Assembly: GCA_039794205.1 (NCBI GenBank)
Contig: JBDIVU010000001.1
Span: 223,794 to 287,793, forward strand
Direction of reading: 5' to 3'
Source of the DNA: Phycisphaeraceae bacterium
GTDB lineage: Bacteria > Planctomycetota > Phycisphaerae > Phycisphaerales > UBA1924
DNA: 64,000 nt
The notes beneath the pieces are model-generated. The model worked only from the letters and a program-made list of their open reading frames with translations, did not search any database and had not been told where the DNA came from. This document shows, one piece after another, positions 36,324 through 60,463 of the stretch (positions are counted from its first letter, which is position 1; every line of letters starts with the position of its first letter). The position numbers were made by a program, and so were the translations under genes.

Positions 36324-37180
36324 GCACGCAGCGTTCCCGATTAATCACAGCGGTCGCGTCCGCGATGCTGCTCGCCGCGGGCGCAGCGGGCCTCGACGCC
36401 GCGATCGCGCTGACGGACGCAGTGATCACCAAGGTCGCCATCCACCCCCCGGGCGGGCTTCGCTACCACACCATCCCCGTCCGGTCGGAGACCTGGGAGC
36501 GTTTCGGCGCCGACCCGCCGCCGCTGTCCGCCGAGATCATCGAGAACCTCGGGACCGAAAACTATATTTCCAGATATTATATCAAGTCGTCCACCCGCCA
36601 GGACCCCCGCCCGCGGATCTTCGAACTCCACTGCACCTACTTCACCGGCATGTCCGACACGGTCCCGCACGTCCCCGAGACCTGCTTCGTCGGCGGGGGG
36701 ATGCGCATCGTCAACGAAGCCGTCATCGTCCCCGTCCCGATAGACATCGGCCGCTTCCCGCCCGATCCGACCCTCGAGGACTCGGAGTTCGATCCCGCGG
36801 TCTTCGGCGTGATCCGTCGCGGCCGGACCGGCCCGGACTCCGACACCCCCGGCGTGCGCGTGCGGATGCCGTTCGGCTTGGATCGGCTCCGGCTGAGAGT
36901 GACGGAGTTCGAGTCGCCCGACGGCCGGCGCACATTCGCGGGGTACTTCTTCCTTGCCAACGGCTGGGCGGTGGATTCGGCGCTGGGCGTCCGCCTGCGC
37001 GCCTTCGACCTCAAAGCCAGGCACGCCTACTACTCGAAAGTTCAGTTCACCAGTTCGCTCGTAGACTCGGCGGAGGAGCTCGCCGAGATCGCCGCGGACT
37101 TCCTCAACGAGATGCTCCCCGAGATCATGCGCCGCGTCCCGGACTGGACCGAGGTCGCCGCCGGACGATACCCCGAATGA
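36320..37180 (+). CDS. Candidate exosortase-associated EpsI-like periplasmic protein (assignment tentative)
   Basis: GTG start overlapping the exosortase stop. Signal peptide (LITAVASAMLLAAGAAGLDA). Adjacency to exosortase is the usual EpsI arrangement, but no diagnostic motif was recognised. Confidence 0.4.
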   Translation: MSTQRSRLITAVASAMLLAAGAAGLDAAIALTDAVITKVAIHPPGGLRYHTIPVRSETWERFGADPPPLSAEIIENLGTENYISRYYIKSSTRQDPRPRIFELHCTYFTGMSDTVPHVPETCFVGGGMRIVNEAVIVPVPIDIGRFPPDPTLEDSEFDPAVFGVIRRGRTGPDSDTPGVRVRMPFGLDRLRLRVTEFESPDGRRTFAGYFFLANGWAVDSALGVRLRAFDLKARHAYYSKVQFTSSLVDSAEELAEIAADFLNEMLPEIMRRVPDWTEVAAGRYPE

Positions 37181-37230
37181 CGCCAACCACGCGGACGCGC
37201 GCCCGCGCCCGCGCCAAGGAATGACCGCCC

Positions 37231-40200: not shown

Positions 40201-41790
40201 TACGAGCAGGCGCTCCCGCTCTTTCGCGAGGCTCTCTCCGCAGCGACGGGCGCGCGCGCGGGCGACATCTCGCGGCGCATGGCCGAGGGCCTGCTCCGCC
40301 TTGAACGATACGAGGAAGCGACCCGGGCGCTTTCCGGCCTTGACGAGGCGCAGCGGCGCGACCCGAGGACGTTCGTCCTCCTCGCGCGTGCCGCGGCAGG
40401 ATCCAACAACGCCCGCGCCGCAGCCAGGCTTCTAGACGACGGCATCCAGGCGAACCCGACAAGCGCGATGCTCTTCGTCGAACGCGCGTCGCAGTCCATG
40501 CAACGTCCCGAGCAGTTGAACGACGCGCTCGCCGACGCGACGCAGGCGATCCGCCTGGCGCCCGGGATGCCCGAGGCGCGCAGGCTCCGCGTGGCGATCC
40601 TGGCGCGGCTGGGCAGAATGGCAGACGCGATCGCCGAGACCGAGCAGGCGCTCGCCGTGCTGAGCAACGACCGCGATCTCTGGCGCCAGCGGATCGAGTT
40701 GCTGATCGCGTCGGGCGATTCGCTGCGCGCCGCCGACGCCGCCGACAAAGCCGCCGAGCGTTTCCCGGCGGAGACGATCTGGCTCGTCACCGCGGGCGAC
40801 CTGCACGCGCAGTCTCAGCGCTGGAATCAGGCGGCGCCGCGATATCAGAAGGCTTACACAGTCGCACCGAACGTGCGGCTGGCGGTGCGGCTCGGGCAGA
40901 CGTTGCTCGAGATCGACCAGCCCCGGCCGCGCGAGGTGATCGCGCTCATGGACCGCTACATCGACGGCGACGACCTCCGCAGCACGACGCGGCTGCTAAA
41001 GTCCGCGGCCCACGCCGAGGCCGGCGAGCGCGACGCCGCGGTCAACGCCGCGATCGAATCGCTGGATGAAGCGCGCACGACCGCGGACCTGCGCGACTGG
41101 TTCCGCGGGATCGAGCCGGCGTTCCCCGAGCCGAGCGCCCGGCTCGAGTTCGTGCGTTCGAGGCCGGCGCCGGAGGGGCTTGGGTCGCTGCACACGTTCT
41201 TGGTTTCGCAGCTCTCGCTGGCCGCCGGCGCCGCGCACATCCCGACCATGGTCGCCGAACTCACCGCCGCCGAAGCCGGGACCACGGACCCGACGGTGCT
41301 GGTGGACATCGTCCGCCTGCTCGGGCAGATCCACTATTCGAGCGGGGACTACAACGCCGCGGCGTCGTTCTTCGAGAAAGGAACCAAACTTAATCCCGAC
41401 GATGTCGAGTTCAACAACAACCTCGCTTACACCCTGGCGCGTCATCTCAACCAGCCCGCCAGAGCGCTCGCGCCGGCCGAGCAGGCGGCCCGGCTCGCGC
41501 CGTCGAGCGCGAGCATCCTGGACACGCTGGGGTGGGTCTACGCGCTGCTGGATCGGCTAGACGAGGCGTCGGCGACGCTGAACCGGGCCCTGAACAACGC
41601 CCGCACGGACGACGAGCGGGCGCCCGCGCACATCCACCTCGCGGAGACGATGCTACGCCGGCAGGACACTCTGGGCGCCGCACGCCACGCCGAGTCCGCC
41701 CAGCGGATCCTCGCCCGCAGCGCCGTCCTCCGCAACGAGTACGGCGAGGCCCTCGACCGCGTTATGAAGCAACTGGAATCGTCCGAATGA
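37231..41790 (+). CDS. Giant TPR-repeat protein (1519 aa), N-terminally membrane-anchored; PrsT-like in context
   Basis: SD AAGGAA plus ATG, one N-terminal TM helix, then more than 1400 aa of Ala/Leu/Arg-rich TPR-like helical repeats. Confidence 0.7.
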   Translation: MPANKINIRFVATLGAVLVVLFAGVAFVAYQRLSTSGAEYEARGDALMAQGMPREAAGMYRRAVRHDRTNVAWLTKWREALLQIVPATAVEYSQYYTDFYRGSLGMLAALQERNPDAQRDYIGTIYDELRFSGAAPEAWVQFADIVASALNRLPADDPKTQSLHRYRALANLARGRTIDLNDDEVRKIREDLETAIAGDPTDIEAAASLVIWHSEVWRRAVRARRAETAARAWQDTLAALESQKEKFPGEPMLALVEIQLTAQNILSNTQTVRDRLAALSNVDQIDAPLIDALADRDPATLDPSLLDRAYATLQQMRAPSAAARRLLPILDAVAQSQTARPHLMILRADMLAAVGRHREAIEQLDQLLALPDLPVSLEGLMLMQVYRAEAIYRQGEAFLSLYNNTEDAAERQTLLASAHEARGRLVQRVSGGETAPNVMLLDARLALAEGRPRIAAERLAALDEQREGRDQRVIRLLGTALAQSNLLGASREQFLRIIEDNPLDIDALFRLGDIERSLRELKSAESRYEQILTVLPDSADARLRLSAIRAEQGVVTVLDRTAVDPVSAALIRWRTLMNFETPAIDDALKTLTDARAALGDDPRLLNGLILHHAQVGNIDAARAQLDEAEQLFPDDDRFGHWRARLSLADSRSSLDDVLAAIDESESRPLERLLTKHDVCVANGAPDRASDYLREAAALAPADPRVLDRRFSRAIVDNDMDTARAVVAEAARANADSVGGALYQGRLEFSLNEIEKAHTTLTQVVDRIPFDSAAWRLLGQTRLRLGRVGEALDAFERAFTTKPDDANIARLYAQTLAQLQRGGDALEVARRARRLTPGNPELNDLWLALEESFGDAGLAARERGERFAAAPDDFANTLALARIHISAERWAEARKVLDSARAARPRHPAAARLDAEWHARQGDIEAGAGVLRGIADEQAPAGNHLAVAQYYLEHNLTPDARRELEAARSKQPAGEKNAEIMLADLHFAAGEYEQALPLFREALSAATGARAGDISRRMAEGLLRLERYEEATRALSGLDEAQRRDPRTFVLLARAAAGSNNARAAARLLDDGIQANPTSAMLFVERASQSMQRPEQLNDALADATQAIRLAPGMPEARRLRVAILARLGRMADAIAETEQALAVLSNDRDLWRQRIELLIASGDSLRAADAADKAAERFPAETIWLVTAGDLHAQSQRWNQAAPRYQKAYTVAPNVRLAVRLGQTLLEIDQPRPREVIALMDRYIDGDDLRSTTRLLKSAAHAEAGERDAAVNAAIESLDEARTTADLRDWFRGIEPAFPEPSARLEFVRSRPAPEGLGSLHTFLVSQLSLAAGAAHIPTMVAELTAAEAGTTDPTVLVDIVRLLGQIHYSSGDYNAAASFFEKGTKLNPDDVEFNNNLAYTLARHLNQPARALAPAEQAARLAPSSASILDTLGWVYALLDRLDEASATLNRALNNARTDDERAPAHIHLAETMLRRQDTLGAARHAESAQRILARSAVLRNEYGEALDRVMKQLESSE

Positions 41791-41896
41791 ACCCGGACAC
41801 GACCGGCCCGGGGTCGCCCCGAAGCACGTCCGAAAACCGTCCGGCGGGAGCGGACGTGAACACAGCGACCCCGCCCGGCGTGTGAGTAAGGAAGCC

Positions 41897-44185
41897 ATGC
41901 CGACACCCGGCCAGAATCAATTCGCACGCCCAGGCGGCCAGCAACGCCATGCCTCGGCGCCTGCTCCCGCCTCGGGCGGGCTCGGCGTCGCTCTCGACCC
42001 CATCAAACTCCTCCGGCAGTACGCCAAGTGGCTGGTCGCAGCGGGAATCGTCGGCGCGATCGTCGGCGTCGCTGCGCACTTCGGGCTTATGCGCGTATAT
42101 CCACTTTACCGCTCCGAGGTCACCTTCGAGATGACCTCCCCGATCACCGACGCCAGCGCGATCATCACAACTCTCGACCGCTCCGAAGCCGAGATCGAAC
42201 GTTTCATCGGCGGGCAGATCTTCCTCCTGCGCTCGGAGTCGCTGCTACTCGACGCCGTTCGCAACGACCCGAGCATCCGCAACGACACGCAGTGGTCCCG
42301 CGCCTATATCTCGCCCGACACCGGCGTCCACGACGAAAACGCGATGGTCAAGGATCTCACCGGGATAGTTCAGGCGTCCCCGATCCCGCGCTCGAACATC
42401 GTGATCCTGTCCGCGACGACGCACGTCCCGCAGGACGCCGCGACGATCGCCAAGGCAGTAAAGGACGCCTACCGAAGACAACTCAACCGCGACAAGCAGA
42501 CCGACTCGCAGGACATCCTCGCCGCCTTGTCCAGCCAGCTCCGCGGCGTGCAGGACGAACGCCGGCTCGTCGAGGAGCGCATGGACAAACTCCTCGTCGA
42601 CAACCAGGTCACGAACCTCGAAGAACGGCTCATGATGCAGTCCGAGGAGTTCGCCTCGCTCCAGCCCCGGGTTATAGAAACCAGGCAATCTCTGGAGATA
42701 TCGAAGGATCTCCTCAAGTCCTACGAGGAGCAGCTCGCGGCGCCCGGCGGCGCGACCTACCCCGAGTCCGTGCGAACCGCCGTCCGCGAGCACTTCATCG
42801 TACGCAACTTCGAGTCACAGGAAGCCAACCTCGAAGCGGCCCTGCGCAACGCTCGAACCCGGCTCGGCGAGCGCAACCTCCAGACTCAGCAGATCGTCAA
42901 CTCCATCGCCGCGGTGCGCGAGTCCAAGCGCCTCGCCGAGGAGCGTTTGCTACAGGAGAAGTTCCTCGAACTGATCGAGATGACGCGCTCGACGATCCGC
43001 TCGCTCGAAGCGTCGCTGGTCGAGATGCAGACCTCGATCGAGCAGGCCCGGGCGCGCCTGGCCGACCTCAAGCGCGTCTCCGAGGACTACTCGAAACTCA
43101 AGTCCGACCAGGCGCGCCTCGCCGAGACCGAAGCCAGGCTCCAACTCGACATCGAGTCGCAGCGCGCCATCCGCGCCCGCGAGGCGTCCAGCCGGGTCCG
43201 CGTGCGCTACAACGAGGAAGTCCCCACCGAGCCGATCTTCCCGAAGATCCAGTTCATCGCGCCGGCGGGGGTCGTGCTCACGCTCGGGCTGGTCAGCGGG
43301 CTGATCCTGCTGCGCGAACTTCTCGAACAGCGTGTCCGCTCGCCGCAGGACGTGGCCCTGATCCCCAGGGCCCGCGTCATCGGCGTGGTCCCGGACCTGG
43401 ACGAAGACCCGTCGCGACCCGCCTCGCCCGAACTGGCCGTGCACGATCGGCCCACCGGCGTCATCGCGGAGTCCGTGCGCCAGATCCGCACTGCCGTCCT
43501 CAAAGAATTCACCCAGCGCGGGCACAAGGCGCTGCTGGTCGTAGGCGGCGCGCCCGGCTCCGGCGCGAGCACTCTCATAACAAACCTCGCGCACTCGCTC
43601 GCCGCGACCGACCACCGCGTCCTCGTGATCGACGGCAACTTCCGCCGGCCCACAATGCACAAGCACTTCGGGGTGGCCGAGGCGCCCGGGCTTGGCGAGG
43701 CGCTCACCGGCGCCGCGACACTCGCCGACGCCGCACAGCCGACCGACGACACGCACATCGACGTCGTACCCGCGGGCGCGCCGGGCAGCCGAATCTTCGA
43801 ACGCCTCACAACCAGCGGCATGAGCCGGCTCCTCGACGAAGCCCGCGCGCGCTACGACATCGTCCTCGTCGATTCGCCACCCGCGATCGTAGCGGGCGAC
43901 GCGATGGCGCTCGCCAACCGCTGCGACGCCGCGCTGCTCGTCATCCGCGCCTACAGCGAAAAACGCGGCCTGGTCGCGCGTGTCCGCGATCAACTCGACG
44001 AATCCCGCGCGGAGTTCCTGGGCGTGGTCGTAAACGCCGTCCGCTCGAGCGCCGGCGGGTACTTCAAACGTAACTATCGTACGGCCCACACCTACCAGAA
44101 CGGCCTGGCCGAGGAACTCGAAGCCGCCCGGCTCGCTCGCGCCCGCACCGCAGCCGAACCGATCGAACCCGCCGAGTCGCGCTGA
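41897..44185 (+). CDS. Polysaccharide co-polymerase (Wzz domain) fused to a BY-kinase/MinD-like P-loop ATPase (Wzc/EpsG-like)
   Basis: Two TM helices flanking a periplasmic coiled-coil, then a C-terminal Walker A (VVGGAPGSGAST), A' (VLVIDGNFRRP) and B (DIVLVDSPP). SD AAGGAAG before the ATG at 41897. Confidence 0.78.
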   Translation: MPTPGQNQFARPGGQQRHASAPAPASGGLGVALDPIKLLRQYAKWLVAAGIVGAIVGVAAHFGLMRVYPLYRSEVTFEMTSPITDASAIITTLDRSEAEIERFIGGQIFLLRSESLLLDAVRNDPSIRNDTQWSRAYISPDTGVHDENAMVKDLTGIVQASPIPRSNIVILSATTHVPQDAATIAKAVKDAYRRQLNRDKQTDSQDILAALSSQLRGVQDERRLVEERMDKLLVDNQVTNLEERLMMQSEEFASLQPRVIETRQSLEISKDLLKSYEEQLAAPGGATYPESVRTAVREHFIVRNFESQEANLEAALRNARTRLGERNLQTQQIVNSIAAVRESKRLAEERLLQEKFLELIEMTRSTIRSLEASLVEMQTSIEQARARLADLKRVSEDYSKLKSDQARLAETEARLQLDIESQRAIRAREASSRVRVRYNEEVPTEPIFPKIQFIAPAGVVLTLGLVSGLILLRELLEQRVRSPQDVALIPRARVIGVVPDLDEDPSRPASPELAVHDRPTGVIAESVRQIRTAVLKEFTQRGHKALLVVGGAPGSGASTLITNLAHSLAATDHRVLVIDGNFRRPTMHKHFGVAEAPGLGEALTGAATLADAAQPTDDTHIDVVPAGAPGSRIFERLTTSGMSRLLDEARARYDIVLVDSPPAIVAGDAMALANRCDAALLVIRAYSEKRGLVARVRDQLDESRAEFLGVVVNAVRSSAGGYFKRNYRTAHTYQNGLAEELEAARLARARTAAEPIEPAESR

Positions 44186-44212
44186 CCCCGCATCGCCAGA
44201 ATCAAGAATCCG

Positions 44213-45595
44213 ATGAACCGCGACTCGCTCATCTTCGACACCGACGCGCTGAGCGGGCTATCTCTCCGCGCGCCGGGATCCGACGCGCTCCCCGTCGAAC
44301 CTATGTCGGCGATGTCCGTCTTCAACGGCTATCTCGGCGTGTTCATCGTCGCCTTCCTCGTCACCCTTCTCGCGACCCCGATCCTCCGCCGACTCGCCCT
44401 CGCGCACGGCGTGATCGACCAGCCCGACTTCGATCGCAAGGAACACCGCCTGCCCGTCGCGTACCTCGGCGGGGTAGCCGTGTTCCTCGGCCTGCTCGCC
44501 GCCGTCGCGTTCGGGATGATCGCGCGAAGCCCCCTCATCGAGGACCACCCCTCAGTCGTCTATCAGCGGCCGGTCCCGATCTCCATCCTCTTCGGCATGA
44601 TGGTCATAATGTTCGTCGGGCTTCTCGACGACCTCGTGGGGATCCCCCCGCGCGCCAAGATCGCCGGGCAACTCTTCGCGGCAGCGGCTCTCGCGATGGA
44701 AGACGTCGGCGTCCGCGTCGCCGCCGGCCTGCTCACCCCGCTCGGACGCGCTATCGGGCACGAGTCGATGGTCTTCACCTTCCCGCTGCCCGTCGTCGGG
44801 ATGGACGCGCGCATCGACCTCGTCTACTGGACCGGCACCGCGATCATCGCAATCTTCATCCTCGGCGCCTGCAACGCCAGCAACCTCCTCGACGGACTCG
44901 ACGGCCTGGTCACCGGCGTCACCGGCATCGCCGTCGGCGCCATGCTCGTCCTCGCGCTCGGACTCGCCGTCATCAGCGACGGACCGCTCGACGCCACGCG
45001 CGTGATCCTCTCTCTCGCAGTCCTGGGCGCCTGTCTAGGGTTCCTCCCGCACAACTTCAGACCCGCGACGATCTTCCTCGGCGACTGCGGGTCGATGCTG
45101 CTCGGCTACTGCGCCGTCGTCATCATCCTCTCGCTCGGGGACACCGGCCGCACGCCCCTCGTCGTCGCGGGGCTGATCGCGTACGCAGTCCCGATCATCG
45201 ACACCACGCTGTCGATCGTCCGCCGGAAGATGTCCGGCAAGTCCATGAGCGAACCCGACCGCGAGCACATCCACCACCTGCTGCGCCGATCGCTGGGCGT
45301 GACACGCGCGGTCCTCGCGCTCTACGCGCTCGGCGCCGTCTTCGGCGCACTGGCGATCTTCGTGACGCTCGGCCGCGCTCGGCTCGCGTACACCATCGCG
45401 CTCGTGCTCGCGGCGTTCATCGGTGTGACAGCCGTGAAAATCGCCCGGCTCAAGGCGTTCGAGGAAGAAGCCCGCGCGATCGCGGAGGGTCGCCCGCTCA
45501 CCGTTCGCCGCCGTCGGCGCCCGGCCGCGATCCCTCAGCCCGACGCCGACCTCCCCGGCGAACCCGCCGTCCGCCCCGAGCCGACCGGCGCCTGA
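44213..45595 (+). CDS. Polyprenol-phosphate N-acetylhexosamine-1-phosphate transferase (WecA/MraY family, GT4 class) - initiating glycosyltransferase
   Basis: DDLVGI, NASNLLDGLDGL, cytoplasmic-loop DREHIHH, and 10-11 TM helices. Confidence 0.78.
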   Translation: MNRDSLIFDTDALSGLSLRAPGSDALPVEPMSAMSVFNGYLGVFIVAFLVTLLATPILRRLALAHGVIDQPDFDRKEHRLPVAYLGGVAVFLGLLAAVAFGMIARSPLIEDHPSVVYQRPVPISILFGMMVIMFVGLLDDLVGIPPRAKIAGQLFAAAALAMEDVGVRVAAGLLTPLGRAIGHESMVFTFPLPVVGMDARIDLVYWTGTAIIAIFILGACNASNLLDGLDGLVTGVTGIAVGAMLVLALGLAVISDGPLDATRVILSLAVLGACLGFLPHNFRPATIFLGDCGSMLLGYCAVVIILSLGDTGRTPLVVAGLIAYAVPIIDTTLSIVRRKMSGKSMSEPDREHIHHLLRRSLGVTRAVLALYALGAVFGALAIFVTLGRARLAYTIALVLAAFIGVTAVKIARLKAFEEEARAIAEGRPLTVRRRRRPAAIPQPDADLPGEPAVRPEPTGA

Positions 45596-46251: not shown

Positions 46252-48135
46252 TGATGAACCGAAGAATCGCCGCCGCCGCGGGTCTGGCGCTGTCATGCGC
46301 CGCAGCCCCCACGCACACGCTCAGTTCACGTACCGGACGGTTGCGCAGAGCGGGGTCGCGGGGTTTACAGACTTTGACATCGCGCTCATCGCGAACAACG
46401 GTCTGACCTCCATGAAAGCCACGCAAGGCTCCGAAGGCGTCTGGGCTGAAAACGGCGTGCCCGGCAATCTGCTGACTCTTGCCAAGGTCGGAGTCGACAG
46501 CAATTTCGGATGCCAGAGCGAACCCACGGAGGCAATTACAAGGCCCTCTATGAATTCGGCCGGTCTAGTGACACTCGCCGCAATGGAGGATGGGCTCATT
46601 TTCAGTGCAGGCGCATGCAGCAATGAGTGCGCATCATCAACTGCGGTACAAACATGGTCAGGAATTCTCCGCTGGAATCCTGGCAGCCCTGCTCCCTCTG
46701 TAGCGATGCAGGTCAGCGACTCGGTTCAACACGGCGGCGTGACAATCCCTTTCTATCCCGCGGGCTCTCCCGGGTTCTTCGATGGTTTCGTGCCGAGAAT
46801 CGGCAACAGCGGCAGTGTTACCGTGTACGACAAATTCTGTCTGAACGTGCCCGGAGCCCCCAGAGCGCCACGATCGTTAGCCCGCTGACCGGCGGCCTGG
46901 TAGTGCATGCGGCCACTGGCGAAACTGGCATTTTGGATTTACCCGCGACCATGTCCAATCCCTCCATCAACGGCGCGGCGTCGGCGAACACAGTCTTCTA
47001 CGCACGACAGGCTCTCGACACCGACATGGTCTCCAACGACCCCAACAACGTCGACTTCGGTATCTATTTTACATCGGCGGGTTCCGCCACCAGGGTCTTC
47101 GTCGAAGGCGATATCGCTCCGGTTCCCTTCGAGGAGGAGCCGATGGATCCGACGGACCCATTCCCGTTCCCGGATCCAGGCCCGGATTACCGCTTCTCAC
47201 AACTCGGCTTCCACCCCGCGATCAACGACGCCGGTCAGGTCGCGTTCTACGCCCGGATTGCAGAGCGCGTGCAGATCGGCTCTGACATCCAGTACATCAA
47301 CCCCAGCGGCGGGATCTGGTCCGGACTCGGCGCTAACTATGGCACGTACCGCCTGGTCGCCATGCACGGCGACCAAGCCCCCGGCCTGCCCGCCGGGGTG
47401 GTCTTCTCCGGCTTCGGCGACCCTGTCATCAACGCGACCGGCCAACTCGCCTTCGTCGCGTATCTCGCCGGGGCCGGCGTCAACGCTCTAAACGACTTCG
47501 CGGTCTATCGCGCGACCCCCGACGGCCAGGGCGGCTTCACCCTCGAGCTGATCGCCCGCGAAGGGTTCTCCGCGCCGGGCACAATCGGTTTTTATGCCGG
47601 CGATCTGCCCAACGGCAGCCCGTTCCGCGATCCCTTCATCAACGCCTCCGGCCAGGTCGCGTTCCAGGCGAACTGGCACTCCAATCCAGGTTCGTTCGGG
47701 TCCGGCGGCCCTGGAATCTGGCTGAATACACCAGGCGTCGGCAACGTCGCCGTGGCAGCGCGTAGATTGTTCGGAAAAGGGATCCAAACGATCTCGCTTG
47801 GTTCAGGGGAAGCGTCAGGCGCCGGGCAGTCTAAAGCCGCTTCTTCCGGTGGCCAGGACGGCCGCGGCACTGCTCTCAACGACAACGGGGAAGTGGTTTT
47901 CGTAGTTCGACTTCAAGCGATTCCGGAGCTCGACCGGCGCGTCGTCGTCGCCTCACACCCGTCGCCGATCATGCTCGCGACCGACTTCAACGCCGACGGC
48001 TTCACCGACTCGGGCGATCTGGCGCTCCTCTTCGAAGCCTTCGACACCCAGAACAGCCGCTACGACATCAACGCCGACGGCGTTATCGACATGCGCGACG
48101 TCAGCGTCGTCCTGAACGCGATGACTTCACGCTAA
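46252..48135 (+). pseudogene. Secreted repeat protein (x-G-Q-V-A-F repeats) with a C-terminal dockerin-like pair, disrupted by two frameshifts
   Basis: Signal peptide MMNRRIAAAAGLALSCAAAP is in frame 0 (46252). The body continues in frame 2 (to 46888) and then frame 1 (to 48135). Both frame switches coincide with CCCCC tracts (~46303 and ~46853). The C-terminus reads DFNADGFTDSGDLALLF..DINADGVIDMRDVSVVLN. Confidence 0.5.
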
Positions 48136-50799: not shown

Positions 50800-52074
50800 A
50801 TGACTTCCGTCGTCTTTTATTTCCAGGTTCATCAGCCGCACCGGCTTAGGCGGTACTCCGTCTTTGACGAGTCGCCGCACTATTTCGACGACCACCACAA
50901 CGAGGCCGTGCTGCGCAAGGTCGCCGACAAGTGCTATCGGCCAGCGACGGCGAAGATCCTCGACCTCGTACGCCGGCACGAGGGGCGCTTCCGCGTGTCC
51001 TACGCGATCACCGGCGTCGTGCTCGACCAGCTCGCGCGCTGGGCGCCCGACGTGATCGATCTCTTCAAAGAACTCGCCGACACCGGCTGCTGCGAGTTCC
51101 TCGGCGAGACCTACCACCACTCGCTGTCGTTCCTCTACTCCCGCAACGAGTTTCTCGATCAGGTGGACCTGCACACCGCGCGGATCGAGGGGCTTTTCGG
51201 CGTGACGCCGCGCGTCTTCCGCAACACGGAACTTATATATAACAACGATGTCGCGCACTACATCGCGGGGCTGAAGGACGACGCGGGCGAGCCGCGGTTC
51301 GACGGCGTGCTGTGCGAGGGGGTCGACGGCGTGCTCGGATACCGCTCGCCGAACTATCTTTACCTCCCGCCCGGGCTGAAGGGGCGCGACGGGCGACGCT
51401 TCGCGCTGATGCTCAAGAACTATCGCCTGAGCGACGACATCGCGTTCCGGTTCTCGAACCGCGGCTGGGCGGAATGGCCGCTCTCCGCGGAGAAGTTCGC
51501 GGGGTGGGTCGATCAGATCAACGGCGACGGGCACGTCTGCAACCTTTTCATGGACTATGAAACCTTCGGCGAGCACCAGTGGGCCGACACGGGCATCTTC
51601 GAGTTCCTCGACGCGCTGCCCGAGAAGATCTTCGACTTCAAGCCCGGGCACAACCACTTCGACACGCCTTCGGAGGCGATCGCGCAATACGAGCCGGTCG
51701 GCGTGTACGACGTGCCGCACATGATCTCGTGGGCGGACACGGAGCGCGATCTGTCGGCGTGGCTGGGGAACCCGATGCAGTCCAACGCGCTGTACGAGTT
51801 GTACCGGCTCGAGGGGCCGATCAAGGACCGCGTCGCGGGTGCTTCGAGCGAGGCGGATCGGCATCACGCCGAGGGCCTGCTGGCGGACTGGCGCAAGATG
51901 ACGACCAGCGATCATTTTTATTACATGTGCACGAAGTGGTTCGCCGACGGGGACGTGCACAAGTACTTCAACCCGTACGAGTCGCCGTACGACGCGTACA
52001 TCAACTTCATGAACGTTCTGGACAACATCCGAACCCGCGCCGAGGCCGGGTCGCGCGAGCCGGCGGCGGTATGA
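50800..52074 (+). CDS. Glycoside hydrolase family 57 (alpha-amylase / 4-alpha-glucanotransferase-like)
   Basis: N-terminal FYFQVHQPHR, a catalytic-region-like segment MDYETFGEHQW, and a size typical of GH57. Confidence 0.68.
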   Translation: MTSVVFYFQVHQPHRLRRYSVFDESPHYFDDHHNEAVLRKVADKCYRPATAKILDLVRRHEGRFRVSYAITGVVLDQLARWAPDVIDLFKELADTGCCEFLGETYHHSLSFLYSRNEFLDQVDLHTARIEGLFGVTPRVFRNTELIYNNDVAHYIAGLKDDAGEPRFDGVLCEGVDGVLGYRSPNYLYLPPGLKGRDGRRFALMLKNYRLSDDIAFRFSNRGWAEWPLSAEKFAGWVDQINGDGHVCNLFMDYETFGEHQWADTGIFEFLDALPEKIFDFKPGHNHFDTPSEAIAQYEPVGVYDVPHMISWADTERDLSAWLGNPMQSNALYELYRLEGPIKDRVAGASSEADRHHAEGLLADWRKMTTSDHFYYMCTKWFADGDVHKYFNPYESPYDAYINFMNVLDNIRTRAEAGSREPAAV

Positions 52075-52101
52075 CTTTACGCGGGAGTTCGTTTGACGAT
52101 C

Positions 52102-52899
52102 TCAGAAGTCCCCCCCGAGAAAACCGTTCACAGTGTTGAGCATCCTGCTGGAGAACTGCCCGCCGGGATAGAACGGGTTGAGCACCGGTTCCGGGATCAG
52201 CCCGGGCGGGACGATCCTGCCCGAGCCGTCGACCATCACAGCGGGGACCGGCCAGCGTCCGTCGATTCGCCCGGCGAATCCGGGCACACCGTCGCCGTTA
52301 AGTTCCGCGTTCGCGGTGAGGTGATAGGGCACTGATTCGTAAAACATTAGTTTATTTGACGGGAACGCAACGGCGGCGGCGCCGACGGGCGCGAGTTGAG
52401 ACACGTCGAGTGTCGGCGACACCGGCGCCCACATCGCGGCGCCCGAGAAGAGTGCCGTCGAAAGCCCGATCGAATTCGCCACCGCGCCGCCGGCGCCGAA
52501 CTGCGAATGCGGGCCGTCGATTATGTGTGTGCCGTTCTTGATGACCTCGCGTAGCGGGTGCCACGGTGAGTACGCTTCCGGATTCTGGACGTGCTCGCCG
52601 TCACCGATGTAAGGGTGCAACGTGAGCATCCAATACCACTGTTGGTTAAAATACGGCATGTCGACGCCGCCGTTACGGAACGCGCCGGACAGCCTGGGTT
52701 CGGCGTAGTGCGGCCAGTGCCCGGTGTCCTCGGCGTAATTATGCGCGGCCTGGCCGACCGAGCGGACCACTGCGAGCACGGTCAGCGAACGTGCAGTAAG
52801 AACGGAAGGGCGCAGCGCCGCGGCTGCAATCCCGAGGAGCACCGCGATAACCCCAATGGATACAAGGAGTTCCAGCAGTGTCACGCCGCGGCGAACCAT
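52102..52899 (-). CDS. DUF1559 / H-X9-DG prepilin-type N-terminal cleavage-methylation domain protein
   Basis: N-terminus GVTLLELLVSIGVIAVLLGI, the prepilin motif. This family is very abundant in Planctomycetota. Confidence 0.78.
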   Translation of the reverse strand: MVRRGVTLLELLVSIGVIAVLLGIAAAALRPSVLTARSLTVLAVVRSVGQAAHNYAEDTGHWPHYAEPRLSGAFRNGGVDMPYFNQQWYWMLTLHPYIGDGEHVQNPEAYSPWHPLREVIKNGTHIIDGPHSQFGAGGAVANSIGLSTALFSGAAMWAPVSPTLDVSQLAPVGAAAVAFPSNKLMFYESVPYHLTANAELNGDGVPGFAGRIDGRWPVPAVMVDGSGRIVPPGLIPEPVLNPFYPGGQFSSRMLNTVNGFLGGDF

Positions 52900-53033
52900 G
52901 CGTCGATTGTCCCGGCGACGGCGTGAGTCGTCAAGAAGAAATTTGGAAATTTTTGGGGATGGCCCTTGACAGGGGGGGGGTATATTGGATCATAGGAACG
53001 TGCCACGCGGCAGCAACAGAAAGGAACCAGACG

Positions 53034-53339
53034 ATGCGATGGAACCACATGGCAGGCGCTTCACACAGATTCAATGTTCGTATTGCTTTCGTGACGATGT
53101 GCCTACCTGTGGGATATGCAGCGTCAGCGGGGATCGATCAACTGGCTGCTTTCTACGACTGCTTGAACGGCAATCGGGCCGGATCGAGCAATCAATGCGG
53201 TTTTTGTGATGATTCGGCCATTCCGAAACCGGGGTCGCCGAATGGAACAAACGCGGATTGTCAGGCTTGCTGCAATTCCTACGACCCCGCGGGGTCGACC
53301 AAAAATGATAACTGTAGAATTCTAGGTGGATGTTCGTAA
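53034..53339 (+). CDS. Small secreted Cys-rich protein (101 aa, 8 Cys in the mature part)
   Basis: SD AAGGAA 8 bp upstream of the ATG. Signal peptide ..RIAFVTMCLPVGYAASA. Mature part contains C..CGFCDD..CQACC..C..C. GC is about 50% against ~69% for the surrounding DNA. Confidence 0.5.
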   Translation: MRWNHMAGASHRFNVRIAFVTMCLPVGYAASAGIDQLAAFYDCLNGNRAGSSNQCGFCDDSAIPKPGSPNGTNADCQACCNSYDPAGSTKNDNCRILGGCS

Positions 53340-53340
53340 A

Positions 53341-54045
53341 ATGTTCAACGACCGATTTTCAATCGGACAACGTGCTACGATCGCAGGCGGCGCTCTACTG
53401 TTGATCGTTGGGGCTGGGTTGTACATTATTCCATTGCGGAGTAAGCCGATTGCACAACTGCCGCCTGTCCCTGAAGAGCTGGCGAGCCTGTCAAAACCAA
53501 CGCTCGAACCGGATGTGTACGGCGAGTTCGCAGCTGCGCTCGCCTCGCTCTCCGAGGAGCAGAGACACGTCGCGCTTCTAGTGTACGCAAGGAGTGCTCC
53601 TGAAGGTGAAATCAAGGCGCGAGCATGGGGAATGACTAAGCACAACATGAAGGGGAACGCGCGGGAGGTCGAACCGTTTCTGGATGTGTTGGAACGCCCG
53701 CTCGTTCAACCAATGGTCACTGATGCTCTAGCGACCGAGCCGGTTGGGCAGCCTGACAACGGACTGAGGAGCGGCGCGATGTACGGTCTGACTAAAGCCC
53801 TGGTCAGCGGTCTGGATTATGGCGAACAATTATTTACGCGAATCGAAAATGCCGCGATTATGAATATCGATAATGGCGATTGCAGGCATAATGCGATGGT
53901 AGTGCTGCTACTTCTCAGCGAACGGCGGCCTCTCGCACCGGCCTCAAGAAACATTTTTGACTACGCTATGGCCGAGCGCCCCGCATACTTCGAACGGCAC
54001 CTGCAATCCCTTAAAAACATGTTCGAAGCGGGAGAGACCGGCTGA
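53341..54045 (+). CDS. Hypothetical membrane-anchored protein (234 aa) in a low-GC islet
   Basis: Start lies 1 bp after the preceding stop. One N-terminal TM helix (IAGGALLLIVGAGLYII). No recognisable family. Confidence 0.45.
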   Translation: MFNDRFSIGQRATIAGGALLLIVGAGLYIIPLRSKPIAQLPPVPEELASLSKPTLEPDVYGEFAAALASLSEEQRHVALLVYARSAPEGEIKARAWGMTKHNMKGNAREVEPFLDVLERPLVQPMVTDALATEPVGQPDNGLRSGAMYGLTKALVSGLDYGEQLFTRIENAAIMNIDNGDCRHNAMVVLLLLSERRPLAPASRNIFDYAMAERPAYFERHLQSLKNMFEAGETG

Positions 54046-54111
54046 ATAATCGATGCGGCGTGATGCAATTCATCTACTATACTGGTTTTATCAACAACCG
54101 AGTGCCTGACG

Positions 54112-54636
54112 ATGACAGAGACGTTTTTGAAGGCGGACGCCAGCGCTGGCGCCTTACCTGACGCCGTTTCGTCTTACCTCGCATACTTCGCTCGGCTGTT
54201 CGAGTATGACCGCTGGGCTAACGGGCGGGCGCTCGACGCGATGCGGTCGCTGGGCGATCGGCTGCCCGCGCGGCCGGTGCATCGGCTGTCGCACCTATTA
54301 ATATGTCAGGAGATGTGGGTCGGGCGGATGACGCGCTCGCCCAGGCCGATCACGGACTTTTTCCCGTCGTGGACGCTCGCCGAGGCCGCGACGCGGGCGG
54401 CGTCGATCGGGACGCTCGTGCAGCGGTTCATCGAATCTATCGACGACGCGATGCTGCTCGCAGAGTTTGAATACACATCAAGCGAAGGCGGGCGATACCG
54501 CAATCGGCCGATCGACGTGCTCACGCAACTGTCCCAGCACGGGTGCTATCACCGCGGGCAGATCGCGCTCGAATTGAACCCGCTGCTCCCGGCGCCGATA
54601 TCGACGGATTACATCGTGTTTTCCAGGATCGGCTGA
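54112..54636 (+). CDS. DinB/YfiT-like family protein (four-helix metal-binding bundle)
   Basis: DinB-fold His pattern: H..LLICQEMW .. QHGCYHRGQI. Confidence 0.6.
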   Translation: MTETFLKADASAGALPDAVSSYLAYFARLFEYDRWANGRALDAMRSLGDRLPARPVHRLSHLLICQEMWVGRMTRSPRPITDFFPSWTLAEAATRAASIGTLVQRFIESIDDAMLLAEFEYTSSEGGRYRNRPIDVLTQLSQHGCYHRGQIALELNPLLPAPISTDYIVFSRIG

Positions 54637-54892
54637 TGGCCCGCAGCGCCGACCGCCCGCGATCCGAGCGTGCGTGTATACGGGTGGCAGCGGCGCCAGG
54701 CGTCGAACCGGGATCAACCGATCGTGGCTCCGGCGTGCCGCATCGCCCGAGGGGGCGTCACCGCGAGCAAGGCCTTCGGACTGAGAGGCTAGCTCGTTGA
54801 TCTTCGCCACGATGGCGACTACGCGGGCCGGCCCTGGCCCGGGTTGTTGCTCGGTTGGAGTCGGGCATCCGATTCGCGCTAGAATCGTGTTC

Positions 54893-56860
54893 ATGTCGAA
54901 GCAGTCGAGATCCAGCCGGGCGAGATACGCCGCGTACCGCGATCGTCGTGCGGAGGTGGCGACGCCGGACGCGCTGCCCGAGCCGGGCGAGAGCGCGCCG
55001 AAAACCGCGCGGGCGAGGTCGGCGAAGGTTCTTATCGGGCATCTCTGGCGGCTGATGCGCGGGCAGCGCAAGGGCGTCGCGTGGGCGCTCGCGGCGCTTT
55101 CGGTTTCGACCGCGGTCGCGCTCGTCATGCCCGCTTCGACGAAGATCGCCATCGACTACATTCTCACCGACAACCCCGGGCCGACGGGCCTGCCCGACGC
55201 GCTGAGCCTCGGGACGGATCGCGTGCGGCTGCTGTGGCTGTTGTCCGCGGCGATGGTCGCGTCGGCGATCGTCGCGGTGACGTTCGGCACGTGGGGCCGA
55301 TGGCGCATGACGCGGATGAGGCTGCGGATGCAGGCGCGGATGCGCAAACTCGCGTTCGAGCACGCGGTGCGCCTGCCGTTGCACCGGGTTCATTCGATCC
55401 GTTCGGGCGGGATCGCGAGCCTGCTGCGCGAGGACGCCGCGGGCGCGGGCGAACTGCTCTTCAGCGCGATCTACAACCCCTGGAGGGCGGTCCTGCAACT
55501 CATCGGCACGCTCGGGGTGCTGCTGTTCGTTGACTGGCGGCTGCTGCTCGGCGCGGTCGCGTTGTTCCCTGTTATATGGATGACTCATAAAACCTGGATC
55601 GGGCGGATACGCCCGGTCTACCGCGACATCCGCTCGACGCGCCAGCGTATCGACGCGCAGACGACCGAAGTCTTCGGCGGGATGCGCGTTGTCCGCGCCT
55701 TCAGCCGGGAGAACACCGAAGCCGGGCGGTTCCTGCGGGACACGCACTTCATGCTCCGGCAGGAGGCGCTGGCGTGGTGGCGGTCGCGCGTCATCGACAT
55801 CACCTGGCTGCTGCTGATACCGGTCGCGTCGACGGGCGTGCTGCTCTACGGCGGGACGCAGGTCGTCAACGGGTCGCTGACCATCGGCGATGTTATGATG
55901 TTCACGACTTATCTTGTGATGCTGCTGGCGCCGCTGGAGGCGCTGGCTTCCACGGCGACGCAGATACAGTCGAGCCTGGCGGGCTTCGACCGCACGCTCG
56001 ACCTCCTCGAAGAGCCGACGGAATTCACGGCGAACGCCGGCGCGATCCACGCGGACCGGGCGACCACGCCGGGCGGGATCGCGTTCGAGAACGTGTCGTT
56101 CCGCTACCCCGGAGCGCCGGCGGACTCGGCGCCGGTGCTCGCGGAAATCTCGCTCGACGCGGCGCCGGGCGAGACGATCGCGCTCGTCGGGTCGTCGGGA
56201 TCTGGCAAAACAACTTTCTGCAACCTCGTGGCGAGGTTCTATGACCCGACCCAGGGCGCGATCCGGCTCGACGGCGTGGACCTCCGCGACATCGAACTGG
56301 ACTCATACCGCAGGCTGCTCGGCGTCGTCGAGCAGGACGTGTTCCTTTTCGACGGGTCGATCGCAGAGAACATCGCGTTCGCCCGGCCCGGCGCGTCGAG
56401 TGAGGACATCGAAGCCGCCGCTAGCGCGGCCGACGCGCATCGGTTCATAGAAACTTTCAACGACGGGTACGACACCATCATCGGCGAGCGCGGCGTGCGC
56501 CTCTCGGGCGGTCAACGACAACGCCTGGCGATCGCGCGGGCACTCCTCGCGAACCCGCGCATACTTATTCTTGATGAGGCGACCAGCAACCTCGATTCCG
56601 AGTCCGAACGGCTCGTGCAGCGGAGCTTGGCGCGGCTGCTGCGCGGACGGACGAGTTTCGTCATCGCGCACCGGCTGAGCACGGTCCGGCACGCGGACCG
56701 GATCGTTGTGCTGGACAAGGGGAGGATCGTCGAGGTCGGCCCGCACGAAGAACTCTGGCGCCGGGGCGGCCGATACGCGACGCTCCTGACGCTGCAACTC
56801 GGCGAACGCGCGGCGGAACTAGAGGAGGAAATAATACTGACAGAATCGCCGCACCATTGA
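54893..56860 (+). CDS. ABC transporter permease/ATP-binding fusion protein (MsbA-like exporter)
   Basis: Six-TM domain followed by Walker A GSSGSGKTT, signature LSGGQRQR, Walker B ILILDEATS. ATG at 54893. Confidence 0.85.
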   Translation: MSKQSRSSRARYAAYRDRRAEVATPDALPEPGESAPKTARARSAKVLIGHLWRLMRGQRKGVAWALAALSVSTAVALVMPASTKIAIDYILTDNPGPTGLPDALSLGTDRVRLLWLLSAAMVASAIVAVTFGTWGRWRMTRMRLRMQARMRKLAFEHAVRLPLHRVHSIRSGGIASLLREDAAGAGELLFSAIYNPWRAVLQLIGTLGVLLFVDWRLLLGAVALFPVIWMTHKTWIGRIRPVYRDIRSTRQRIDAQTTEVFGGMRVVRAFSRENTEAGRFLRDTHFMLRQEALAWWRSRVIDITWLLLIPVASTGVLLYGGTQVVNGSLTIGDVMMFTTYLVMLLAPLEALASTATQIQSSLAGFDRTLDLLEEPTEFTANAGAIHADRATTPGGIAFENVSFRYPGAPADSAPVLAEISLDAAPGETIALVGSSGSGKTTFCNLVARFYDPTQGAIRLDGVDLRDIELDSYRRLLGVVEQDVFLFDGSIAENIAFARPGASSEDIEAAASAADAHRFIETFNDGYDTIIGERGVRLSGGQRQRLAIARALLANPRILILDEATSNLDSESERLVQRSLARLLRGRTSFVIAHRLSTVRHADRIVVLDKGRIVEVGPHEELWRRGGRYATLLTLQLGERAAELEEEIILTESPHH

Positions 56861-56905
56861 ATGAGGCGATTCTGTCAGTTACGAATTCAGTGGCAGTCTT
56901 GAATA

Positions 56906-58693
56906 TTATTTAATCGACTGCCCAATAAGTGTAATTACACGCACTAGATCAGTTGCGTCCACAACCCCGTCACGGTTGACGTCTTGTGGCAGTCCAGAGC
57001 CGACTGCGCCGAACGAGGCAAGCACTGAGACGAGGTCGTCCGCACCCACGACGCCGTCGCCGTTGAAATCGGCGTGATGCAAGAATTCAAAATCTGAGCA
57101 TGTTGGAATTTCGTCAGTATCTCAGCATGTGCCGATTCCATCGAAATCGAAATCTTCCTGTGTCGGATTGAAGACACCCGGGCAATTATCGATATCGTCG
57201 CGTACCCCGTCGCCATCATTGTCATACGGCATGAAGAAATATACAGAACCATGATCGGTGCAGTTTGAGCCGCAGCCAGGACTGTCGTCATAGGGAGCCC
57301 CGACTAAGAGGCGTCCGTTCATTGCCGCAAGGCATACACCCAATTCGTCGTCTGCGGATGCGTCGCTGGCCTGAACAATATCTGTCTCAACCCACGCACC
57401 TGACAAATCTCGCTTATATATATATACTGCGCCGGTGTCGACTCCCGCAGCGCCGTCACGCCTGAAAGCGCCAATGTAGGCAGTGTCTTCGCCGTCGAGA
57501 TCAACCCAGCGGCCGAAGCGATCTTGCGGGTTGCGGTCCGACGCGAGTATCTCAGCGTCGAGAGTCCATGCGCCAGTTTCACGCCTGAATACATGAGCGG
57601 CACCCTCATCGAGTGAAGTTCCTACCAGAAGGGTGTTGTTTTCCAGTGAAACGGAGTATGCTCCGAACCACTGGTGATGAGTAATTCCAGGGATAAGTGT
57701 TGGATCAAAAAACTGTTCCGGCGTCCAGTCGCCAGAGACAGAATCGTAGACGAATGTCCATACTGCACCGGATCGAATGGCAACACACTGCGGCTGATTC
57801 GGGCTAGAGCCGAGATCGGTCGCTGAACAACCAAAGAATCTTGAACCAACTGCGATTCTTCCATTCGAGATATCGATGGAAGCGCCAAACTGAGCACTCA
57901 TAAGCGTTTGTGGATCCTGCCATGGTAGCAGTTTTTGCCGACTAAGAACGTTGCCTAACGCATCCACTTCGAATACCCACACGGCTCCCGGATCGCACCC
58001 GCCGTCTTTGTCGTTAGCAGGTTCGCAACCTGGTATGTTCATCATGGCTTCGTCATCAAGATGAGCTCCCGCGACAATGAAAGGTCCATCTATAGCGACG
58101 CCACCATAACCTAGTCTGTCTGCCCAAGTTACATTGTCGCGTTCGTCAGAATCAAAACGAGATATTGCAAGCTTTGATACTTGGATCCAGGATCCCGAAA
58201 AATCTCTGTCAAAAATATACACAGCACCAGAGTTGTTTTCAAAGTTATTATTTTGATTATCTATGTGGGCCGATACTGCGATCCTATTGCCTTGAATGGC
58301 AACCTGCCGCCCAAAGCGTGACCCGCGGTTGTCCTTGATTGCACCTGGAGCTGGCACCGCATCGCTTGCGGTCAGCATAGTGTCAAGTACCCATTGTTTC
58401 AGAATATAATCAAACTTGTACACGAACGCCGCGCCTGGATTTGCCCCCGGCTGGGCGACCAGACCAAAGGCGCCAACGACGGCATAGTCTCCGTCAATGG
58501 CCACGGAATAGTAGTTGCTCTTGATCTGGAGCGTTGAGGGTAGAAGTTTCTGAACTTCAATATACCCCGGTTGTGCGTTCGCTGCGGGTAACGTGAATCC
58601 TACATCACACGGAAGAATGCCTGACGTAGTCACGATCACGATGTACGCGACTCTATCCAGAGTCCGATTCGCCATGGGAGACTCCTTGAGCAT
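56906..58693 (-). pseudogene. Secreted FG-GAP-repeat / thrombospondin-type-3-repeat protein with a C-terminal dockerin-like pair, interrupted by an in-frame TGA (57122-57124) at a conserved Cys position
   Basis: The 523-aa ORF ends ..DNDGDGVRDDIDNCPGVFNPTQEDFDFDGIGTC*. The same frame continues DTDEIPTCSDFEFLHHADFNGDGVVGADDLVSVLASFG..DVNRDGVVDATDLVRVITLIGQSIK* down to 56906. The region is ~50% GC. Confidence 0.5.
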
Positions 58694-58927
58694 TTGCTCA
58701 GGTTACGCTTTAGCGCCAGAAGTGATACACCTCCGCGTATCCGTCGGGGAGGCACCAGCGCTTGATTCCGATAACGGCATAATCCCTATTCACAGTGTCT
58801 ATGTCAAGGGGATATAATCAAAATGCGGTCCCCAAAAATCGTCAGTCTATTACGGCCGGGCAAAACCCGAACGATCTGTGTGATCACTGCTCTGCAACGA
58901 CAATAAGCCCAATTGGAGCTACATCTG

Positions 58928-60463
58928 ATGATATCCGAGGCAACTATTCTGGGCGTCGCCGCCTATGACGAACTGCGTTCGCTCCTGCGTGAGGCTGCGA
59001 CGATCGAGTCTGTCGGGCGGCTGTGTTCGTGGGATCAGGAGACGGACATGCCGCCCAAGGCCGCGGGGTTCCGGGCGGAGGAACTCGCGCTGATATCCCG
59101 GCTGCATCACGAGCGCGCGACCAGCGATCGGCTCGGGGAACTAATCGCGGCGTGCGAAGCCGACGCCGACCTGCCCGCCGACCCGCTCGCTGCGGCGAAC
59201 ATCCGCGAGACTCGGCGTGAGTACGACCGCGCGACGAAACTGCCCGCGGATCTGGTGTCGGAGATCGCTGAGACCGCGTCGCGGGCGATGGAGGCGTGGA
59301 AGGCGGCACGCGCGAAGAGCGATTTCTCGATGTTTCGGCCCTGGCTAGAGAAATCCTTCGAACTGGCGAGGCGGAAGGCGGAGTGTCTGGGTGCGCCGGC
59401 GGGCGGGGAGTTGTACGACGCGCTGCTGGATGAGTACGAGCCTGGCGTGCGGAGCGCGGATGTCGAGCGTGTGTTCGGGCCGTTGCGTGGGGCGCTGACG
59501 CCGATGATCGCGGAGATCGCCTCGGCTCCGAGACGGCCGAGCCGGGCGCCGGACGAAGTTAAAGTTGATCGGGCGGCGCAGATCGAGATGAACAAGTTTG
59601 TCGCGGGCGCGATCGGGTTTGACTTTGAAGCGGGGCGGCTGGCGGTCTCGACGCACCCCTTCAGCGAGGGGCTGGCGCCGGGCGACACGCGGATGACGAC
59701 GCGGTACTACGGGGACCGTTTCACGGACTCGCTCGCGGCGACGCTGCACGAGACGGGGCACTCGCTGTACGAGCAGGGGCTGCCCAAGGACGCGCATCAC
59801 GGCGAGCCGATCGCGCATTACATAAGTCTCGGCGTGCACGAGAGCCAGTCCCGGCTTTGGGAGAACCAGGTCGGGCGCGGGCGGCGGTTCTGGGAGTGGA
59901 TGACGCCGGTTGTTAAGAAATATCTCGGCGCGGGGATGCAGAGGTTCGGCGCCGACGACTTCTTCGGCTGCGTCAACATCATTGAGCCGACCTTCATCCG
60001 CGTCGAGGCGGACGAGTTGACGTACCACCTGCACGTGATGCTGCGCTTCGACGCCGAGCGGGCGATGATCCGCGGCGATCTCGCAGCGGCGGACCTGCCC
60101 GCGTGGTGGAACGCGCGGATGAAAAACGATCTCGGGCTTGTAGTGCCTGATGACGCGCGCGGGTGCTTGCAGGACGTGCACTGGTCGATGGGGGCGATCG
60201 GGTACTTCTCGACGTATTCGCTCGGGAGCATGCTGGCGGCGCAGTTGTGGGAGACGGCGCAGCGGGAACTTCCCGGGGTCGAGGATGGGTTCGCGCGGGG
60301 GGAGTTCTCGCCGCTGTTAGATTGGCTGCGGACTAATATTCACGCGCACGGCAGGCGCTGGACCGCGGCGGAACTTACGCAGCGGCTGACGGGGTCGCCG
60401 CTGGGTCACGGGCCGCTGGTCAGGCAGTTGGGGGATAAATTGAAGCCGATCTACGGGATCTGA
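58928..60463 (+). CDS. Carboxypeptidase Taq-like (M32) metallopeptidase
   Basis: HETGHSLYEQG (HExxH) and the family-specific HESQSRLWEN motif. Confidence 0.85.
   Translation: MISEATILGVAAYDELRSLLREAATIESVGRLCSWDQETDMPPKAAGFRAEELALISRLHHERATSDRLGELIAACEADADLPADPLAAANIRETRREYDRATKLPADLVSEIAETASRAMEAWKAARAKSDFSMFRPWLEKSFELARRKAECLGAPAGGELYDALLDEYEPGVRSADVERVFGPLRGALTPMIAEIASAPRRPSRAPDEVKVDRAAQIEMNKFVAGAIGFDFEAGRLAVSTHPFSEGLAPGDTRMTTRYYGDRFTDSLAATLHETGHSLYEQGLPKDAHHGEPIAHYISLGVHESQSRLWENQVGRGRRFWEWMTPVVKKYLGAGMQRFGADDFFGCVNIIEPTFIRVEADELTYHLHVMLRFDAERAMIRGDLAAADLPAWWNARMKNDLGLVVPDDARGCLQDVHWSMGAIGYFSTYSLGSMLAAQLWETAQRELPGVEDGFARGEFSPLLDWLRTNIHAHGRRWTAAELTQRLTGSPLGHGPLVRQLGDKLKPIYGI

Follow-up and report, generated by a model that had tools for sequence, protein, structure and literature searches.

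An FG-GAP gene interrupted by TGA

The window analysed here, by which we mean the whole 64,000-nucleotide (64-kb) stretch of DNA from a Phycisphaeraceae bacterium, carries on its minus strand a gene for an FG-GAP exoprotein in which a TGA codon interrupts a reading frame that stays open beyond it. In the list of open reading frames (ORFs) and their translations, the ORF starts at ATG 58675 (or ATG 58693) and ends at TGA 57124-57122; past this codon the frame remains open for exactly 71 sense codons (57121..56909) and closes with a TAA at 56908-56906. The original prediction, made from the letters of this DNA alone, had described an in-frame TGA at 57122-57124 followed by 71 codons to a TAA at 56906, and all of these coordinates check. 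The elements of the gene are as follows, with the stop codon written as an asterisk and the basis of each assignment in brackets.

57122-58675, minus strand: the ORF as terminated, 517 residues plus TGA, with an FG-GAP propeller between a predicted signal peptide and about 1.5 thrombospondin type-3 (TSP3)-like repeats
57227-58564, minus strand: predicted seven-bladed integrin-alpha-type beta-propeller, residues 38-483 of 517 (AlphaFold2 model)
57110-57223, minus strand: TSP3-like Ca-binding repeats DNDGDGVRDDIDNCPGVFNPTQEDFDFDGIGTC*DTD, the second one broken by the stop (weak TSP_3 match, motif comparison)
57122-57124, minus strand: in-frame TGA within the second TSP3 repeat, at the position where Cys is invariant (sequence, translation, repeats of homologues)
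56909-57121, minus strand: 71 post-TGA sense codons, a linker DTDEIPTCSDFEFLHH and then a dockerin (translation)
56921-57085, minus strand: intact dockerin type I / EF-hand pair with Ca loops DFNGDGVVGADD and DVNRDGVVDATD (Pfam)
56906-56908, minus strand: TAA, the presumed original stop codon of the FG-GAP gene (sequence, translation)

The part of the protein encoded ahead of the TGA matches the Pfam family FG-GAP_2 (PF14312) in 6 stretches, with an E-value of 9e-44 and a score of 147.9 bits against a cut-off of 23. An AlphaFold2 model based on 31 sequences (mean predicted local distance difference test score, pLDDT, 81; predicted template modelling score, pTM, 0.84) has propeller strands over residues 38-483, and the best matches to solved structures in Foldseek are the propellers of integrin alpha4, alpha5 and alphaV (E 7.5e-16). 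In this model the propeller is complete upstream of the TGA, which falls within the low-confidence TSP3 linker region. The N-terminus, MANRTLDRVAYIVIVTTSGILP...ANA/Q, looks like a signal peptide of the Sec export pathway.

With its 6 FG-GAP_2 matches, its predicted 7 blades and its structural matches to integrin alpha subunits, the protein resembles the bacterial integrin-alpha-type FG-GAP propellers (PF14312), and the human integrin-type beta-propeller domain is known to be conserved in bacteria (PMC3192720). It also shares with many FG-GAP homologues a signal peptide, in its case a predicted one, combined with C-terminal accessory modules. Unlike other bacterial FG-GAP propellers, it forms an orphan branch with 24-33% identity to any protein, has long, low-confidence insertions between its blades and stops ahead of its C-terminal module. 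In homologues with one propeller, the C-terminus is commonly formed by a dockerin pair or another sorting module (e.g., P0056, P0099, P0074 and P0084); propeller-only homologues exist as well, and the free form should therefore still fold.

When the readthrough protein was compared with a collection of 5.8 billion proteins, the sole identical entry was the 517-residue P0001, which is identical to the product of the ORF as terminated; all other entries were at most approximately 33% identical. No orthologue or second allele of the gene was present in the data searched, i.e., the 5.8-billion-protein collection and metagenome contigs. When JGI metagenome contigs were scanned for the exact pattern, with NNN at the position of the stop, there were 0 matches, and exact look-ups of the proteins encoded on either side, an M32 carboxypeptidase and an ABC transporter, returned only the same contigs or nothing.

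The stop at a conserved cysteine and the dockerin behind it

The TSP3-like repeats give only a weak signal with the Pfam model TSP_3 (PF02412): the truncated protein scores 18.6 bits and its readthrough variants score 21.3-21.7 bits, all below the 25-bit cut-off and with one stretch aligned. Replacing the stop by C, S, W, G, R or L shifts the score by just 0.2-0.4 bits. Because these scores are nearly equal and the model aligns the first repeat only, TSP_3 cannot resolve the residue at the stop, and a ranking of ancestral residues by this model was set aside as uninformative in favour of a direct count over repeats. For this count we took the 60 repeats with the context N..Q.D.D.DG.G that occur in 12 FG-GAP homologues. 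All 60 have Cys as the third residue past the motif, 55 have Asp as the fourth and none has Cys as the second. The corresponding sequence of the window reads NPTQEDFDFDGIG-T-C-*-D-T-D, so that the stop coincides with the third residue after the motif. Set against the longer motif N-x-x-Q-x-D-x-D-x-D-G-x-G-D-x-C-D, the repeat NPTQEDFDFDGIGTC*D agrees at all acidic and Gly positions except for one D-to-T change, with the stop in the place of Cys. The last repeat of the homologue P0016, by comparison, ends in DNDGIGTACDT. The proposal in the original prediction that the TGA occupies the position of a TSP3 cysteine is strongly supported by these alignments, in which the stop would correspond to the invariant Cys of the second repeat.

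The tail beyond the TGA matches Dockerin_1 (PF00404) in 2 stretches, scoring 34.5 bits where the cut-off is 22.9, and also matches several EF-hand families. Its identity to dockerin modules from unrelated bacteria is 52-56%, and its two Ca-binding loops are intact, in agreement with the complete dockerin pair that had been predicted there. The 71-codon frame stays open in just 4.2% of shuffles of that stretch, which, together with the dockerin match, shows the tail to be real coding sequence. The GC content at third codon positions (GC3) hardly differs between the part ahead of the TGA (0.50) and the tail (0.52), indicating that the two share one origin. A search with the C-terminal 136 residues found generic dockerin modules only, none of them across the TGA junction. 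We also considered a 58-residue ORF with a TTG start (56906-57082) as a separately expressed gene and rejected it: it lacks a signal peptide and simply continues the FG-GAP gene in frame.

Two further genes of the window, both on the plus strand, have Dockerin_1 as their last approximately 50 residues. One (29601-30884) encodes a Rax2-like propeller exoprotein at ordinary host GC, and the other (46627-48135) a DUF7453 exoprotein in a lower-GC stretch (approximately 0.61-0.65). Terminal dockerins therefore recur in this Phycisphaeraceae genome, and the readthrough product of the FG-GAP gene would share the design of these two proteins, a propeller-like domain with a terminal dockerin. No cohesin partner was found among the eight large ORFs of the window that were scanned. 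A hypothetical "planctosome" cohesin/dockerin system with TSP3 spacers has been described in Planctomycetota (PMC6461901). The FG-GAP protein resembles the non-cellulosomal dockerin exoproteins of this phylum in being apparently secreted, in its TSP3 repeats and in having a type-I dockerin-like EF-hand pair encoded at the extreme C-terminus; it differs from them in that a stop codon uncouples the dockerin, which is assumed to have a tethering function, from the protein.

The signals around the gene are listed below.

58693, minus strand: alternative upstream ATG (sequence read)
58682-58687, minus strand: Shine-Dalgarno-like AAGGAG, 6 nt 5' of ATG 58675 (direct reading of the sequence)
58779-58807, minus strand: Sigma-70-like promoter match TTGACA-17 nt-GATTAT, within the inserted DNA described below (consensus scan, 10/12; consensus match only)
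56836-56879, no strand assigned: inverted repeat, its 18-nt arms (94% complementary) enclosing an 8-nt loop (repeat search)

ATG 58675 is the likelier start, because AAGGAG lies 6 nt upstream and because this is the start used for P0001. The inverted repeat lies 26 nt past the TAA. It overlaps the stop codon at the end of the convergent ABC-transporter gene and, read on the minus strand, has a U-rich tract, UAUUAUUUCC, on its 3' side. The hairpin looks like a bidirectional terminator, although it was not among the matches of a simple terminator scan. It is the sole strong, terminator-like hairpin that the repeat search returned in this region, and it follows the TAA; none follows the TGA.

A low-GC insertion between two host genes

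The FG-GAP gene lies between the ABC-transporter gene and the M32 gene, within the following segment.

56827-58950, no strand assigned: lineage-specific low-GC insertion of approximately 2.1 kb with a single gene (synteny with L002 and L003; GC)

L002, a metagenome-assembled genome (MAG) of an uncultured Phycisphaeraceae bacterium, and L003, a Planctomycetota MAG, served as sister genomes for comparison. In both, the ABC-transporter and M32 genes are approximately 100 bp apart, compared to 2.13 kb in the window. Homology to the two MAGs ends at approximately 56826 and restarts at approximately 58957-58959. The DNA in between comprises, besides the whole FG-GAP gene and the shared intergenic region, the final approximately 11 codons of the ABC-transporter gene with its stop and the initial approximately 8 codons of the M32 gene. 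The M32 carboxypeptidase is 94% identical at the amino acid level to that of L002 and 79% identical to that of L003, and tblastn found no trace of the FG-GAP gene in any syntenic locus. The composition of the segment is equally distinct: GC is 0.48-0.57 (approximately 0.52) over approximately 56.85-58.95 kb, 0.68 in the flanks and 0.65-0.72 over most of the window, and GC3 is 0.50-0.52 in the FG-GAP gene versus 0.84-0.89 in three host genes. The original prediction had placed the gene on a segment of approximately 2 kb and approximately 50% GC and had suggested recent horizontal acquisition; the composition data agree with the former, and the spacing of the flanking genes in the two sister MAGs, together with GC3, favours the latter. 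Because two outgroups lack the gene, a recent, lineage-specific and unameliorated acquisition is the parsimonious reading. We found no integrase, nearby tRNA or flanking direct or inverted repeat at the borders as a signature of mobility. In the search for a donor, the next best protein in the 5.8-billion-sequence collection was at most approximately 33% identical.

At one edge of the insertion (56827-56860), the ABC-transporter protein ends in EEIILTESPHH* in the window, compared to DAAAEPTPVD* in L002. At the other edge (58928-58957), the 5' end and the upstream region of the M32 gene have been replaced by inserted DNA. Both host genes now have foreign low-GC termini. A consensus match to a promoter, TTCACA-18 nt-TATAAT, is present at 58789-58818 upstream of the M32 gene, which probably uses a foreign promoter.

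A second stretch of approximately 2.1 kb that is missing from L002 lies nearby, where homology jumps from 52074 to 54168. Besides a minus-strand gene for a prepilin-type N-methylation protein (52102-52899), it contains two low-GC ORFs (52878-53339 and 53326-54045; approximately 0.53-0.55) with no Pfam match, and it may be another recent acquisition. Conversely, L002 has approximately 2.8 kb (1970-4760 of its sequence) between a DinB-like gene and the ABC transporter that are lacking in the window (54636-54795). From these comparisons, the neighbourhood appears to be a hotspot of insertion and deletion in both lineages. Further away, at 33394-45595, a polysaccharide export and biosynthesis cluster provides an ordinary chromosomal context, with genes for a Wza-like Poly_export/SLBB protein, a 1519-residue TPR protein, a BcsQ/AAA_31-type ATPase protein and a GT4 glycosyltransferase.

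A probable nonsense mutation weighed against its alternatives

We consider it highly probable that a recent TGC- or TGT-to-TGA nonsense mutation in an acquired gene has left either an untethered secreted propeller or a young pseudogene. The ancestral gene would have encoded a secreted, Ca-binding, integrin-alpha-like FG-GAP propeller of seven blades, with TSP3-like repeats and a C-terminal dockerin. A single-gene insertion of 2.1 kb, from a donor of approximately 50% GC, would have brought it recently into one Phycisphaeraceae lineage, between two housekeeping genes. One base substitution, after the transfer or shortly before it, would have produced the TGA from a TGC or TGT, the codon for the invariant Cys in the second TSP3 repeat. 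As the host uses TGA as an ordinary stop, translation would end 72 codons early; the product would presumably still be exported and fold as a complete propeller, now without dockerin tethering to a partner on the cell surface. The outcome would be a free, untethered variant or a young pseudogene heading for decay. The mutation would be recent because the tail carries no further lesion. The original prediction had likewise invoked a single TGC-to-TGA change giving a recent pseudogene or a truncated variant, and this proposal fits the Cys in every comparison repeat, the full-length dockerin and the terminator-like hairpin that is present only past the TAA. The locus resembles the young pseudogenes and truncated alleles of transferred genes in its lone point lesion, its unameliorated lineage-specific gene and its otherwise intact remainder. 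It differs from them in that the truncation takes the anchoring module only and leaves a complete exportable propeller, so that the loss of function is putative.

A short near-repeat around the stop bears on the ancestral codon.

57092-57130, minus strand: in-frame 12-nt near-repeat pair, 27 nt apart (TC*D / TCSD)

The copies, ACATGCTGAGAT (57119-57130, which holds the TGA) and ACATGCTCAGAT (57092-57103), differ in a single base, the middle one of the TGA/TCA codon. This pair is the only one of its kind in the gene, and at least one such pair occurs in 14% of codon-shuffled genes. Speculatively, a C-to-A change could have been templated by the second copy, making the first copy more like the second.

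Several observations weigh against a simple Cys-to-stop mutation. The near-repeat itself points to another, minority candidate for the ancestral codon, TCA (Ser). A Cys codon stands directly 5' of the TGA, at a position where Cys occurs in 0 of the 60 comparison repeats; the repeat is thus atypical, and the alignment could be off by one residue. The ancestral state is read only from paralogous repeats of approximately 30% identity, with no orthologue or intact allele found. The four samples behind the Logan contig described below may overlap the data behind the deposited assembly. A TGA at an invariant Cys followed by conserved coding sequence is also the classical, SECIS-independent signature of a selenoprotein (SECIS, selenocysteine insertion sequence), and the selenocysteine machinery (selA, selB, selC and selD) was assessed within the 64-kb window alone.

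The TGA could be an artefact of sequencing, assembly or consensus calling, or a minority allele, in which case the population would carry TGC or TGT and make a full-length anchored protein. The assembly is of the metagenome type, and the locus is known from one NCBI contig and from Logan contigs, with no independent strain. A Logan contig (SRR28812184, reported from 4 samples), assembled by a different pipeline, is nevertheless 100% identical to the window along 13.5 kb, a span that takes in the TGA and both junctions, and there is no homopolymer or repeat nearby that would favour substitution errors. We give this explanation a slim chance. An assembly chimera was rejected separately, since both junctions of the island are reproduced in the independently assembled Logan contig.

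Leaky or programmed readthrough of UGA by a near-cognate tRNA-Trp or tRNA-Cys would yield a major free form and a minor dockerin-anchored form, with the arrangement kept by selection. UGA is the leakiest of the bacterial stop codons, the downstream dockerin has no disabling mutation, and transcription probably runs on to the hairpin past the TAA. Yet an intact tail is equally expected after a very recent mutation, no stimulatory structure was found 3' of the stop, and the next base is G, which does not make a notably leaky context after UGA. With no orthologue found, selection for the arrangement is hypothetical, and we regard readthrough as improbable.

Recoding of the UGA as selenocysteine would give a full-length protein with selenocysteine in place of the TSP3 Cys, which could form a selenenylsulfide with the adjacent Cys. 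This idea draws on the alignment of the TGA with a residue that is Cys in all 60 homologous repeats, on the intact conserved domain encoded downstream in frame, on the Cys-selenocysteine (C-U) dipeptide that the adjacent Cys would create and that is absent from all comparison repeats, and on the complete selenocysteine machinery carried by some Planctomycetes (PMC4807772). The position alone is not special, because of the 58 other routes that lead to TGA in one step in this gene, 11 (approximately 1 in 5) start from Cys codons, so that approximately 20% of random one-step mutations to TGA would strike a Cys codon anyway. The bacterial SECIS (bSECIS) model requires a stem of at least 4 bp, a loop of 3-9 nt with G in the first two loop positions, a distance of 16-37 nt from UGA to the loop and an energy of -7.5 kcal/mol or lower (PMC13188914). 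Inspection for a SECIS-like hairpin, which the original prediction had raised as a way to exclude recoding, argues against selenocysteine: no hairpin at the TGA qualifies under this model in a scan that did pick up an fdhF sequence as a control. The best structure within 50 nt of the UGA has -3 to -4.7 kcal/mol, and 61% of positions in the same gene are as good or better; the 96-nt fold is not notable either (z = -0.49). An Rfam scan returned nothing relevant, and the 64-kb window holds no tRNA-Sec, its only tRNA being a tRNA-Leu. The site, moreover, belongs to a structural Ca-binding and disulfide repeat and not to a redox centre, and, the gene being foreign, any SECIS would have to suit the SelB of the host. 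TGA serves as the terminator of the host ABC-transporter, M32 and GH57 genes. The gene thus resembles those of bacterial selenoproteins in its in-frame UGA where homologues have Cys and in the conserved coding sequence that follows, and differs from them in having no SECIS-like hairpin, redox context or selenocysteine-containing orthologues. We consider selenocysteine very unlikely.

Both kinds of decoding, selenocysteine via a non-canonical SECIS or regulated readthrough, would have the consequence that one transcript yields free and dockerin-anchored propellers, a proposition that we likewise hold to be very doubtful. If it were true, the gene would represent an unusual structural selenoprotein or a dual-localisation switch, and nothing found favours either. 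In the selenocysteine case, the anchored form would carry a Cys-selenocysteine pair in a structural, extracellular Ca-binding TSP3 repeat, which would be the first non-redox, structural use of selenocysteine in a bacterial exoprotein.

The least credible explanation, a donor that reads TGA as sense (Trp in code 4 or Gly in code 25) combined with a new host that reads it as stop, takes up the foreign origin and lower GC of the gene but was rejected on codon counts, as only one of the 589 codons is TGA, and TGG is used for all 11 Trp and standard GGN codons for Gly (e.g., 14 GGA); in addition, the position is invariably Cys, not Trp or Gly, and a GC of approximately 52% is far above that of the known code-4 and code-25 lineages.

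For annotation, a recent nonsense mutation means that the 517-residue product should be flagged as truncated, or the gene as a pseudogene with a 72-codon remnant. The locus also calls for caution in selenoprotein screens that lack a SECIS criterion: because Cys codons are one step from TGA, a TGA at an invariant Cys with a conserved domain downstream easily arises by chance. The finding is an ordinary one, a new divergent member of known protein families with a common kind of lesion, and has little import beyond annotation. Within the Phycisphaeraceae lineage, it would provide a clear instance of a single gene that was transferred only recently, is still unameliorated in composition and already bears one mutation that disables or truncates it.

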